DNA of 64,000 bases from Phyllosticta citribraziliensis (lineage: Eukaryota): NCBI RefSeq assembly GCF_038025025.1, contig NW_027117339.1:2666001-2730000 (forward strand), read 5' to 3'. This document shows, piece by piece, positions 27,869-34,589 of the stretch. The notes below the pieces were generated by a model. It made no database searches, was not told the origin of the DNA, and worked only from the letters and a program-made list of their open reading frames with translations. The translations under genes and the position numbers were made by a program. The first letter of the stretch is position 1, and each line of letters opens with the position of its first letter.

Positions 27869-28968
27869 TTAGTCGAAAAGACCGAAGCCCATGTCGTCAT
27901 CCTCCTCCTCGGACTCCTCCTTCTTGGCCTCCTCCTTGGGAGCCTCGCCGCCAGCAGCGGGGGCAGAGGAAGCGGCGGGAGCAGCGGAGGCGTACTTGTC
28001 AGGGTTGGCAATGCGGTCCTTGAGCTCCTCAATGGCCTCCCAAGAGTAGTCGGTCTCAATGGCAATGGCCAAGAGCTTCTTGTAGGAGTTGACGACCGAG
28101 TGCATGACGGACGGCAGGGTGGGGAAGTTGAGGGCCAGCGAGATGGAGGCGATGGTGTTGATGGCGCTGGTGAAGGTGGCGAGCAGCTGGGACTCCTCAA
28201 TGTCGAGGACGGAGGCGTCGAAGCTCTGGCCCTGGTCGTAGATCTGGGCAACAACCATACCGTAGGTGAAGGGAGAGATGTTGAGCATGTTGAGCAGGGT
28301 AGCCTCGGAAGCACCGACCTGTTGCACTTGTCAGCCAGAGAGCTCAACGACGTTGTCAAAATGATTTTACCTTGCTGCTAGCCTCAACGAGCTTGAGGTC
28401 GCTGGTGATTTCAATGGTACCACGGGCAATCTTGGTAGGAACACCGAGGGCCTGGAAGAAAGAGGTCTTTCCGGGTTCCATACCAGTGTTGCCAGCGGGG
28501 ATCCAGACGTCAGCGGGAGCGACGGCACCAGCCCTGGCGGGGGCGGCGACACGGTTGGCAAGAATCTTGTCACGGATGTCCTTCAGGTCGCCGTTGGTGA
28601 AGATCTGCATGGAGAATGAGCACGATTGACCGGTCAACTGCCTTTGAGGGTTGACGTACGAAACCAATGTTGCCCTTGACGTGGGGAAGGAGACGCTCGT
28701 ACTCGGGGTGCTCGCCAATGAAGCCCTTGAGAGCACGGCGGACCATGGTGTTCTTACCCATCAGGACGACACCCTCGCCGCGGAGCGACTGGCGGATCTC
28801 GTGCATCTGCTGGGACGAGACACTGCGGGCGCGTCAGCATGTGAGCGGCCAATGGGTCTGGCGGAGAGCGTACTTGTCGACGCCAACGATGAAGATAGAC
28901 TTGAACTCCTCGAGGAGAGTCTTGAGCTTATCGAAGTAAGCGGCCTTGGTGTTAGACTTGCCCCCCAT
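27869..28968 (-). CDS. RPP0: 60S acidic ribosomal protein P0
   Basis: Motifs [12 protein letters not shown] and [16 protein letters not shown]; ends [16 protein letters not shown]; three introns. Confidence 0.98.
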
Positions 28969-29219: not shown

Positions 29220-30929
29220 ATGCAACACCCATACCAGTGCCTCCAAGTGCTGCGCCGCGTAGGCTCGCAGCCTGTCAACTTTCTACTCGCAGCTAGCTCC
29301 TACAAACTACTGAACATCGACCTGAGTACCGGCAACGTCCTCGCGTCTTGGTCTGCCGAGCCTCTCAACATCTCGACAGTAAGTCCATCTTGCTACGGGA
29401 AAGAAAAGGCTGGGCTAAGCATGACTTTCTAGGCGGAGGACCAACCCTCAGAAACACCCGAAGGTCCGCCCGGAAAGAAGAGAAAAGTTTCCCAAGACTC
29501 GTCCCGCCCCAACATCATCAAATTGACGACTAGTCATGATGGTGCCCACGTAGTAGCAATCACTGGCGAGGACAAGTGCGTCCGAGTCTTTGCAATTGCA
29601 GCCAATGGTGAATTGCAGCACGTGAGCGAAAGGTGATACCATGTACCTGCTTTCCAGTCATTTTAGAACCTCTGTTGAGCCCATGACGCAGGTCTATGCC
29701 AAAGCGCCCCTGCGCCGTCATCGTTACAGACGATGATCAGACAATCATCACCGCCGACAAGTTTGGAGATGTCTACGCCTTGCCTCTTCTCCAGTCCCAA
29801 GAGGAGGAAGACGCATTCTTGGCGGAAGCTGAAATAGCAGCACAAAAGAAGTACGCGCCTGCGGCAACAAATCTGACGGTGCATACTGGTCGGAACCGCA
29901 AGGCTCTCGAAGCACAGCTGAAGCAGCAGCAGCAACAGAGGCAAGCCACTGCAACCAAGACCAAAGAGCCGTTGAAATTCAAGCACGAGCTCCTACTTGG
30001 CCATGTATCAATGTTGACCGACATAGCGGGCATCACCCTGGATCAACAAGATCTGAACGCGGGACTCAACGAGCTTGCCTCAAAATCGCAGCAGTCGCGG
30101 AGCTATCTACTAACGGCAGATCGGGATGAACACATACGAGTTTCGCGGGGCCAACCGCAGACGCACGTCATCGAAGGGTTCTGCCTCGGCCATAAAGACT
30201 TCGTCAGCAAGATCTGTTTCGCCTCGCCACAAGTGCTGGTGTCCGGCGGCGGGGATGACGAATTGTTTGTCTGGGACTGGATCAAAGGCGGCCTACTGAA
30301 CAAAGTCTCAATCCAAGACATGGTGCAGGCTATACCCGATAATGGCGAGTCTGTCGAGGGTGGAGGGCGAGAACGCAACTTTGCTGTCTCTGGAATATGG
30401 GGGTATCCCCAGGATAGTAAACGCAAGGTGCGTGCGAGCCTGGAAGTTGTCCATCCCTGTTAGATATTGACAAGCGGCACGTGTAGAGCTCGATACTGGT
30501 AGCACTCGAAGGAGTCGCGGCCCTGTTTGCCATGGAAGCTCACAGTGTGCACGAGGCTGGAAAGACGAAGACCACGGTTGTTCCACTTGCAGGGAACGTG
30601 ATGGATGTCGCGGTGGGCGAAGGGCACGTCTTTGTCTCTGTGGACAATGTGCACGCTAAAGGGTCAACGAGTACCGTGCGGGCGGATAAGGTGAGCGGTC
30701 AAGCGTGCTTGGCGACGACAGAGTTCAAGGCTGACGTTTGGATGAATTCAAGGTTGCACGGCTGCAGGCATTGAAGGTGGACGATGGATGGCAAGTGTCG
30801 ACGGTGGACGTGGGCGAGCTGAGGGGGGCGAACGATGTCGGAACGGTTCAAGTGGACGACAAGGACAGGCTCGGCGAGACGCTGTACGGCATCTCCAAGT
30901 TGCGTAAGCGCGGTGGGGAGGAACCGTGA
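29220..30929 (+). CDS. TRM82: tRNA m7G46 methyltransferase non-catalytic WD40 subunit
   Basis: Motifs MPKRP, ADKFGDVY, LLLGHVSMLTD, TADRDEHIRVSRG, FCLGH and VSGGGD; ends LYGISKLRKRG. Confidence 0.92.
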
Positions 30930-31347
30930 TGATGATGTCGGGCAGTTGATGGGGGTCGAAGGTGGAGTGTCTGGATCGGGGTCGCTTACGCAGCGGCCTG
31001 TACAGGCGCATGGGTGCCGGGGACTCCCTCCAGATCCGAGCGGCGACCGGCGCCGATTCTTGCGCCAGCCATCGGATGGAGCTTTCGAGCGTCGACTTAG
31101 AAATCAAGCCCAACGTCGTTGATAAATACTCTATTGTCTCTTGAATCCCCTCTACATTTTGACTCGAACTCCCTCCCACAACCCTCTCGCCGTCGCCAAA
31201 CTGTTCGCCGCACTCTTTCGCCGAGCGACCGCCTCGCCCCTCCGCTCTTCGCTATCCCTCCCCACTGCCGTCGCCGCAACCTTTCAAACGCAGCAAGCCG
31301 GTGCCGTCACTTCTCCCGTTGGAATCGCCCTCAAGGGTTATCGGAAC

Positions 31348-32672
31348 ATGCACTCCAAGCTCGTCAGTAAGTGCTGTTCTTTGACGTGCCCCTCGTCTCT
31401 GACGACATCCGTTTGCTAACCCGGTTCCGCAGTCATTGGGTACGTCGTCCGACGCCGTCTTCGGCCTGTTTTTTGCCCGCCCTGCACATTTGCTGACGAC
31501 GGTTTTGGAACAGCTCTGGCCCCGCAGGTCACACTGCCGCAATTTACGCTGCTCGTGCTGAGTTGAACCGTGAGTTCCCAAACGCTCCGATCCTCACTGG
31601 CCCCGCAGCAACTCTAACACGCGAATAGCGGTCCTCTACGAAGGTTTCCTTGCACTTGGAATTGCCGCCGGTGGACAATTGACGACCACCGATGAGGTTG
31701 AGAACTACCCCGGATTCCAGAAAATCCAGGGTTCCACCCTGATGGTAAGTATCTGCTCCAGGGCGGCGGTTTTTAAAGCAATCCTCTAACCTGTTCCTTC
31801 ACCAGGACCAAATGCGCGCACAATCCGAAGCATGCGGTACCGAGATCGTTTCCCAAACCGTTGGCAAGATTGACCTCAGCGCCCGTCCTTTCAAGTTCTG
31901 GTTGCACCCTATGGGTGACGATGACACCCTCGAGGAGGAGACCCACACGGCCGACACTGTCATCATTGCCACCGGAGCCAAGGCCAGGAGACTGGCGCTG
32001 CTCGGCGAGGAGAAATACTGGGGTAACGGAGTCAGCGCCTGCGCTGTGTGCGACGGTTCCGCCCCCATCTTCCGCAACAAGCCTCTTGTCGTCATCGGCG
32101 GAGGAGACTCGGCCGTGGAGGAGGCCATTTACCTCACGAAGAAGGCTTCCAAGGTTTACGTTCTCGTTCGCCGCGATGTCCTGCGTGCATCCAAGTCCAA
32201 CGCCACGAGGCTGGCCACCCATCCGAAGGTCGAGATTTTGTACAACACCCACGCGACGGAGATCAAAGGTGAAGAGAAGGCAGGCGGTCTGATGACCGGC
32301 CTCGCCATCCACAACAACAAGACTGGCAAGGACGAGACTTTGGACGCCAACGGCCTTTTCTACGCCGTCGGCCACGACCCCGCCACCGCACTTTTCAAGG
32401 GCCAGCTCAAGATGGACGAGGACGGTTACCTCATCACGGAGCCTGGCCGCGGTCTCACCAGCGTCGAGGGTGTCTTTGCTGCCGGAGATGTTCAGGACAA
32501 GCGCTACAGGCAAGCCATCACGAGCGCCGGCGCCGGTTGCGTTGCAGCCCTCGAGGCCGAGAAGTTCCTTGCGGAGCAGGAATTGGAGAACCCGATTGAA
32601 GGAGAGAACCAGGCCGAAAAGGCACAGACGAACGGCGTGGTCCCTGAGTACCGATCGAACCCGCAGCTTTAA
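31348..32672 (+). CDS. TRR1: Thioredoxin reductase (low-MW type)
   Basis: Spliced [36 protein letters not shown]; redox motif [18 protein letters not shown]. Confidence 0.97.
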
Positions 32673-33264
32673 GATCTGCTAGAACGACTTTCACGAGTTT
32701 CCATCATCCCTTCATGTACAGAGGTTCTTTCTTACAGCAATTGCGATTGTCGGCATGCTCAATCGGCATGACCCTATAGAATCCTCTCTTGGGCAAGCGG
32801 AAGAAATGTTTTTTTTTTTTTTTGGTTAGAGACGGATAGAGAAAGAGAAGTTACCATCATCCAGCATGTCTTTGGATGGCAGCAGTCGACTGGCACGTAA
32901 AGTTCGTCCAGGTTGGATGGCCTGGCCATTTTCGTTGACACAGAAAACTGTACAACAGCGCAAAGTTGACCTCTGGAGGTCAGCGCCCACGGTGTCTTGA
33001 GTTCGATTTTCTATGATGATAGAAGCAAGCATAGCCTGATATCAATTGATTCTCACTCCTGATTTGAGCACCTTGATGACCTTGATCTAGTGTTGATAAG
33101 ATAATGCAATATGTACCGTAACGTTGGCTGTGGTACCTGTCTTGCGCAGAAGATATAGCGCTCATTGATGCGGCCAATTTTGCCAGGTACGATTCACAAC
33201 CTTCTCATAATTTTGGGTGCATACCGAGGGTGGAAGCATGGCATGGCTACTCGACAGTGTACCT

Positions 33265-34589
33265 CTATCTGCAGCAACGGTGAACTTCCTCGAAGAAGAA
33301 TCTCAAGTCATCAGGATTGACGAATGGAGTGATTCCTGTCGAGAATTAGCACGAGTCAACCCGAGATTGTTTGGGGCAAATTCTCACCGTGGCCTAGGTT
33401 GGCAATCCAGCCCTGTTTGCCTCTACCAAATCCCTTTGCCATGTTTTCCACGGTAGCAGTGATAGCCTCCCTGCTGCCGTAAAGGACACCAGGGTCAGCA
33501 TTACCTTGGACTACTTTGCCCTTGGCCTGCGCAATCTTGTACGCCTCGACCGGCTCATGTAGCCAGTCGAGCCCGATGACGTTGTAATTTGTGTTACACA
33601 AATCTTCAAGCGCATACCATGCTCCTTTGGCAAACACAGTCATCGGAACTGGCTTTTGTCCCAATTCGAGAAGGCGTTTGGGCAGGTTGTCGGCTATGTA
33701 CTCCAGGTAAGGAAGAGAAAACTGTTTGAAAGTGGCGGGGGAAAGCTCGCCAGCCCAAGAGTCAAAAATCTGCACCATCTGCAGCGAATGGCGGTTAGTA
33801 ATGGACGTCCTAAGATTTTTTCCTCTCGGGGTTTGCGAATACTTGCCTGAGCGCCGGCAACCACTTGATGGGCCAAATACTCGACACAAAGTTCGGAGAT
33901 TCTTTGCAAGAGCGCCTTGCTTGCATCAGAGTACTTGTAGACCCACGTCTTGACCTCCTTGAACATTTTGCTGCCACCTCCTTCAACCATGTAGCTGAGG
34001 AGCGTCCACGGCGCCCCGCAAAAGCCGAGCAAGGGAACCCGTCCCTTGAGCTTCTGCCTGGTGAGCGTAATGGCCTTGTACACGTAGTCCAACTCGACCG
34101 TCACGTCGACGTTGCGCTCCATGATCTGCTTGTACTGCTGGTCCTCTGGGGAGCGGAGCGGGTTCGGAAAGTGCGGGCCCTTCTTGTCTACCATGACGAC
34201 CTCCATGCCCATGGCTTGAGGAATCACCAATATATCAGAGAAGATGATTGCAGCGTCGATCAGGCCGGCAAATCGCTCAATGGGCTGAAGGGTCAGCGTC
34301 GAGGCAATCTCGGGTGACCGACAGCATTCGAAAAAGTCATGGCTGCCTTTCGCCTCGTGGTACTCGGGAAGGTAGCGGCCGGCTATTGGCATTTCAAAGT
34401 CAGAAACAGGCCAAAGGCAGGTGGAGAGCTGACTTACCCTGCCTCATCACCCACATGGGCGCGCGCTCGACCTTTTCGCCTAGACGGAATTGTAAGTTTG
34501 TCGAAAGCCGAATTATCGAGGAGATGCAGAGACTTACCGCGAGCTGTCCTCAGCAGCAGGTCATTCTTGAGGGGTTCGAATTGAGGCAT
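33265..34589 (-). CDS. HEM12: Uroporphyrinogen decarboxylase
   Basis: Motifs [45 protein letters not shown] and NLGHGITP. Confidence 0.97.

Follow-up and report, generated by a model that had tools for sequence, protein, structure and literature searches.

A conserved putative near-cognate start upstream of thioredoxin reductase points to a candidate mitochondrial isoform in Phyllosticta citribraziliensis and related fungi

The window analyzed here is a 64,000-nt stretch of the Phyllosticta citribraziliensis assembly GCF_038025025.1 (contig NW_027117339.1, positions 2,666,001–2,730,000, forward strand); all coordinates below are window coordinates. It holds a plus-strand thioredoxin reductase (TrxR) gene with five exons encoding 354 aa. 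Exon 1 (31348..31366) opens with the canonical ATG, which would start a short cytosolic isoform and lies in the context GGAAC ATG C; 52 of 61 distinct loci share the A at −3 of this ATG. Exon 2 is a 7-nt micro-exon (31433..31439), exon 3 (31514..31569) includes the FAD-binding GSGPAG region, exon 4 spans 31629..31744, and exon 5 (31806..32672) holds the CAVC redox center and closes with a TAA at 32670–32672. Spliced RNA contigs from four runs bear out every intron, and we judge the gene model sound. The micro-exon is flanked by introns of 66 and 74 nt, and its letters appear between both joints in all four runs.

Sequence comparison identifies the enzyme. The translation carries GSGPAG across exons 2–3 and both CAVC and GGGDSA in exon 5; the CxxC center and the FAD/NADPH glycine motifs are what we take to be the defining motifs of a low-Mr thioredoxin-disulfide reductase. 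The closest database protein, the 354-aa Phyllosticta citriasiana TrxR (P0001), matches the window at 96% identity across exon 5 and scores 374.4 bits against NCBIfam TIGR01292 (thioredoxin-disulfide reductase; cut-off 343.45). Over profile positions 62–300, exon 5 of the window reaches 278.9 bits by itself, so that the pass above the cut-off belongs to the ortholog P0001. Among the best 120 TrxR protein matches, most named species occur once, a weak hint that the TrxR gene is single.

Several neighboring features frame the gene. On the minus strand, a ribosomal L10/P0-family protein (PF00466) lies upstream at 28570–28833, and a uroporphyrinogen decarboxylase (PF01208; E 5e-65 and 2e-35 for its two exons) lies downstream at 33356–34443. 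The upstream plus-strand gene shows a weak, sub-threshold β-propeller match. About 140 nt past the TrxR stop, a run of 16 T occupies 32811–32826; RNA contigs end at ~32798, at a skipped repeat, which need not be the 3′ end of the mRNA.

Upstream of the canonical ATG, the TrxR frame stays open for 74 codons, back to an in-frame TAA (31123..31125, plus strand), and no in-frame ATG occurs from this TAA to 31348. Within this frame, a CTG at 31201..31203 follows GCCAAA and stands 49 codons ahead of the ATG. The first-pass annotation had proposed this codon as the start of a mitochondrial TrxR isoform, and its position and frame were confirmed when the coordinates were re-read from the sequence. As had also been claimed, the segment 31201–31347 is free of in-frame stops and ATGs; it lacks ATG in the other two frames as well, and its translation reproduces the peptide given there (Leu at the first codon), with zero Asp/Glu, four Arg, and one Lys. 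The resulting plus-strand extension of 49 codons (31201..31347) is presequence-like, with a net charge of +5. The nine nucleotides before the CTG (31192..31200) read GTCGCCAAA and include an A at −3. At the other end of the extension, a CGG (31342..31344) encodes an Arg two residues ahead of the canonical Met, a possible processing-peptidase R-2 site.

Other potential starts lie farther upstream. Weaker in-frame near-cognates occur at 31126 (ATA), 31141 (TTG), 31156 (ATT), and 31159 (TTG), and we rejected all four as the start because conservation, described below, ends at the CTG. From an out-of-frame ATG at 31076, an upstream ORF of 22 codons runs to TGA 31142–31144; it would matter only for TrxR transcripts whose 5′ ends lie ahead of that ATG.

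The window alone carries little statistical weight. Among 20,000 mononucleotide shuffles of 31201–31347, 41% were stop-free, 7.6% were also free of Asp/Glu, and 3.0% were additionally free of ATG in all frames. An open, acid-free, ATG-free frame is only weakly above chance here, because the stretch is 43% C. The significance of the extension derives instead from its conservation in relatives.

To avoid gene-caller bias, we worked with DNA rather than protein models and fetched loci from metagenome contigs using a TrxR protein alignment. This returned 80 loci: 8 end before the start region, 4 break off within the extension, their frame still open at the end of the contig, and 68 are usable. The upstream alignment that the first-pass annotation had called for gave a uniform answer: In all 68 loci, the ATG is preceded by a homologous extension of 44–68 codons that is in frame and open, with zero stops in the orthologous region. 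Among 58 distinct copies, frame 0 is stop-free in all 58, frame 1 in 20, and frame 2 in 32; an ATG in any frame between the near-cognate and the canonical ATG is absent from 58/58. The loci come from metagenome contigs and are phylogenetically related, so these counts overstate the number of independent events, and 68 loci are not 68 independent observations.

Conservation extends to the start codon. The first-pass annotation had suggested looking for near-cognate conservation, and the aligned first codon is CTG in 44, GTG in 19, and ATG in 5 of the 68 loci, and nothing else. Elsewhere in the extensions, CTG accounts for only 18 of 254 Leu codons and GTG for 18 of 113 Val codons. Although these two are rare elsewhere, the remaining Leu and Val codons are absent from the start, which makes the codon rather than its amino acid the target of constraint. 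Constraint confines the first position to CTG, GTG, or ATG, and the GTG and CTG forms are variants of one conserved element. On a maximum-likelihood tree of the large TrxR exon, about eight switches occur among CTG, GTG, and ATG, at least three of which are forced by well-supported branches.

The sequence around the start shows a matching pattern. The strong context noted for the window holds across relatives: Among 60 distinct sequences (window included), A stands at −3 in 55/55 non-AUG copies, and T stands there in 5/5 ATG copies. K, T, or N precedes the start, residues whose codons all have A as the first letter. Positions −9 to −1 are 62–95% conserved without codon periodicity, with the consensus ACCGCCAAA. 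The ATG-bearing loci (L024, L025, L028, L029, and L065) form one clade, nested among CTG lineages in the tree, in which the near-cognate is replaced by an ATG in weak context (TAC ATG T); their extension is a few residues shorter, with an altered N-terminus.

Substitution patterns are those of coding sequence. Within the extension, codon positions 1/2/3 diverge pairwise by 0.49/0.34/0.64; at −60 to −13 ahead of the start the values are 0.70/0.70/0.71, so that conservation is lost and periodicity ends at the start codon. Among single-nucleotide codon differences in the extensions, 62.5% are synonymous. In a close relative represented by RNA run X8 (~94% identity), three of the four listed extension differences are synonymous third-position changes, and the fourth exchanges Thr22 for Ile, a residue common in that column among related extensions. 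The extension is under protein-coding selection, and its status as a translated, selected sequence is well supported.

Composition points to an organellar targeting role. Across 60 distinct extensions, Asp and Glu together account for 19 of 3,170 residues (0.6%), and the first 32 residues are free of both; 63% of residues are Ala, Ser, Arg, Leu, or Thr, and net charge ranges from +4 to +8. Depletion of acidic residues is specific to the coding frame (0.6% vs. 3.9% and 4.7% in the other two frames and 4.5% in the upstream leader). The Arg at −2 from the canonical Met is present in 58 of the 60. In the window, the extension is without the long hydrophobic core of secretory signals. Its hydrophobic moment, taken as a gauge of an amphipathic helix, reaches a maximum of 0.61, vs. 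0.53 ± 0.11 in shuffles, of which 22% equal or exceed the observed value; the difference is not significant. By composition the extension looks typical of a matrix presequence, and a mitochondrial isoform is a plausible identity for the long form of TrxR.

RNA evidence places the extension within transcripts. Four runs from three studies (X1, X15, X16, and X8) were compared with 30700–32900, and all yielded spliced contigs; those of X1, X15, and X16 are identical to the window. Contigs from every run span the CTG and the entire extension, and the extension region is thus transcribed. The first-pass annotation had named a transcription start downstream of 31201 as an observation that would speak against its proposal. 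In all four runs, contigs hold the CTG continuous with the spliced coding sequence, so such RNA exists in the species, though contigs cannot give the transcription start.

The contigs differ in how far they reach. Their 5′ ends, which are not to be equated with transcription starts, fall at 31171 in X15 (30 nt before the CTG) and at 31197 in X16 (4 nt before it). The X8 contig covers 31191–31352 and then runs upstream into unlike sequence, and an X1 contig is unspliced from 30750 to 31366, reaching into the upstream gene. Given contig ends this near the CTG (X16, X15) and an X1 contig that reads into the neighboring gene, a substantial fraction of mRNAs could begin 3′ of the CTG. The same X1 contig (contig 1) runs unbroken from the upstream plus-strand gene across a ~270-nt spacer into the TrxR leader and is spliced at 30750; the 3′ end of that gene and the TrxR leader may therefore overlap, or the contig may reflect read-through.

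Transcripts from relatives show comparable leaders. One of them (L001) equals the genomic locus L061 minus the same introns, with an unspliced leader; the two are colinear for 281 nt upstream of the ATG, over which an in-frame stop is present and an ATG is absent. Thirteen short spliced transcript contigs carry 30–388 nt of leader before the near-cognate, and 11 of the 13 have no upstream ATG.

Database proteins retain traces of the same extension. The upstream peptide of the window can be aligned with N-terminal extensions of several TrxR homologs: P0082, P0094, and P0121 begin with a Met exactly at the CTG-encoded Leu, and P0011 starts with Val. Other deposited models reach a distant upstream ATG (P0091, Aureobasidium pullulans, 414 aa; P0100, Friedmanniomyces simplex, 480 aa; P0126, Boeremia exigua, 539 aa), and one, P0019 from Stagonosporopsis vannaccii, is labeled partial. 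These last four look like annotation work-arounds for a missing ATG. Public TrxR gene models almost always begin at the ATG, the closest (P0001) included. A profile built from 58 extensions recovered 9 proteins at E < 1e-5 and 10 at E ≤ 1 among 8,000 candidates scored, a search that was not exhaustive, as it missed P0082, P0094, P0091, and P0100. Used as a lone query against a 5.8-billion-sequence protein database, the window's 55-residue extension returned 138 candidates, none at E ≤ 10, because a query this short and simple in composition lacks power in a database of that size. Since models start at the ATG and few extensions are matched, the presumed mitochondrial TrxR is absent from annotation and from mitochondrial proteome predictions.

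We consider it likely that in this Dothideomycete one TrxR mRNA is read from two in-frame starts by leaky scanning, the CUG yielding a mitochondrial precursor and the ATG the cytosolic enzyme. A minority of scanning ribosomes would initiate at CUG 31201, aided by the conserved strong context GCCAAA with its A at −3, and produce a 403-residue precursor whose first 49 residues form a positively charged, acid-free presequence. This presequence would take the enzyme into mitochondria, where the conserved Arg at −2 could allow cleavage by a processing peptidase that leaves a product much like the cytosolic one. The majority of ribosomes would pass the CUG, meet no ATG in any frame, and initiate at ATG 31348 in its strong context, yielding the 354-residue cytosolic enzyme. 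The isoform ratio would then be set by initiation at the CUG vs. the ATG, and cytosol and mitochondria are probably served by a single gene. Of the possible mechanisms, leaky scanning is the most economical; alternative transcription starts may contribute.

Alternative transcription starts might set the isoforms in the main, with long mRNAs including the CUG and short ones beginning after it, an arrangement that makes use of a known route to dual targeting in yeast. The contig ends at 31171 and 31197 fit such a scheme, as does the motif GATAAATA at ~31121, which we take to be a TATA-like element; followed by a C/T-rich tract, it would put starts near the CTG. A near-cognate codon is inherently leaky, however, and makes a second promoter unnecessary. 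Leaky scanning also predicts what is seen in 60/60 distinct copies—strong context with CTG or GTG, weak context (T at −3) with ATG—and agrees with the lack of ATG in all frames of 58/58 extensions and with the 30–388 nt of leader that relatives' transcripts place before the near-cognate. The two mechanisms can coexist, and we regard transcription starts as the main determinant as improbable. We give a similarly small chance to an extension that is translated from the CUG and serves some purpose other than matrix import, whether delivery to the intermembrane space or another compartment or the tuning of stability or translation. Coding selection is silent on destination, the hydrophobic-moment test was not significant, and the mitochondrial location described earlier for yeast Trr1 is reportedly the intermembrane space. 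Against this stand a composition of matrix-presequence type (0.6% acidic, net +4 to +8, rich in Ala/Ser/Arg/Leu, Arg at −2 in 58/60) and the lack of a long hydrophobic core. That yeast Trr1 had been described as mitochondrial is stated in a section of PMC6582344.

Two further explanations would remove the non-AUG start altogether. The conserved stretch could be an untranslated element of the leader, or its frame could be open by chance in DNA as C/T-rich as fungal leaders often are, and the shuffles of the window, only weakly above chance, agree with this. It is nonetheless very improbable: The frame is kept in 68/68 loci despite length variation of 44–68 codons, the other frames are open in only 20/58 and 32/58 copies, and three-base periodicity, 62.5% synonymous changes, and frame-specific loss of acidic residues all mark a coding sequence. 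Even less credible is a true start at an upstream ATG in an unrecognized 5′ exon spliced to the extension, which would make the long isoform an ordinary AUG-initiated product. Database models that reach upstream ATGs (P0091 from Aureobasidium, P0100 from Friedmanniomyces, P0126 from Boeremia) speak for it, but the window frame is closed by TAA 31123, X1 is unspliced over 30750–31366 and X15 from 31171, L001 follows L061 colinearly through an in-frame stop and no ATG for 281 nt, and the sequence ahead of the near-cognate is not conserved (0.70 divergence). Initiation at the CUG with leaky scanning to the ATG thus remains the reading we prefer.

The proposed arrangement has partial precedents. 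In S. cerevisiae, ALA1 and GRS1 encode mitochondrial isoforms initiated at near-cognate codons; plant NTRA/NTRB each serve two compartments from one gene through alternative AUG starts; and the mammalian thioredoxin/glutathione reductase TXNRD3 has a CUG-initiated isoform. The last shares with the window gene a CUG start on an mRNA of the thioredoxin reductase family, but it is a high-Mr selenoprotein of unrelated architecture, and its extension is not known to be a mitochondrial signal. As in ALA1, GRS1, and the dual-localized fungal tRNA synthetases termed DualNCC, a non-AUG codon in frame upstream extends the protein by a mitochondrial presequence, here putative, and a downstream AUG gives the cytosolic form; unlike in the synthetases, the enzyme is TrxR, and its dual localization is predicted. 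With Plasmodium and with NTRA/NTRB, the window gene has in common the use, here proposed, of a single TrxR gene for cytosol and organelle by alternative translation starts, and it differs in that those genes use AUG codons. For Plasmodium TrxR, PMC3009606 reports one gene, two compartments, and alternative AUG initiation.

Evolutionary exchange of start codons also has a counterpart. Passages of PMC7049704 describe weak AUG and near-cognate codons swapping in evolution among the DualNCC synthetases, much as CTG, GTG, and weak-context ATG interchange in the fungal TrxR extension. Closest by enzyme is S. cerevisiae Trr1, which passages of Monteuuis et al. 2019 (PMC6582344) list among non-AUG N-terminally extended proteins that gain a predicted mitochondrial signal ("MT-NTE") and that were found in mitochondrial fractions; it belongs to the same enzyme family and would likewise have a non-AUG extension, a likeness by description. 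TRR1 and TRR2 are separate genes in S. cerevisiae, as the first-pass annotation stated and in agreement with passages of PMC2754438, which describe a dedicated mitochondrial TRR2. Yeast thus has TRR2 beside Trr1, unlike the single-gene supply proposed for the window, where one gene—presumably the sole TrxR gene—would do the job of both.

Non-AUG mitochondrial isoforms are an established kind, and non-AUG dual targeting in fungi is known; a conserved CUG/GUG extension of TrxR is an added case. In the literature searched, outside which most subscription journals lie, no filamentous fungus is described as having a conserved CUG/GUG mitochondrial isoform of TrxR. Ivanov et al. 2017 (PMC5487733) treat conserved non-AUG starts in Neurospora, and their main text contains neither thioredoxin, cys-9, nor mitochondrial.

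A broader proposal, to which we give somewhat less than an even chance, is that this unannotated non-AUG isoform is class-wide, perhaps wider, and is the only route of TrxR into mitochondria. Its share would be held constant by compensating changes of start codon and context (CUG/GUG with A at −3, AUG with T at −3), which together would act as one co-evolving dial for the mitochondrial-to-cytosolic ratio of an essential redox enzyme. If the two-start reading holds, it would explain how the mitochondrial thioredoxin system is kept reduced in fungi with one TrxR gene, and CTG, GTG, and weak ATG would form a class-wide natural series relating start-codon strength to isoform ratio. TrxR knock-outs and inhibitors would strike two compartments together, which bears on stress-defense and drug-target work in fungi whose presumed mitochondrial TrxR is missing from current annotation.
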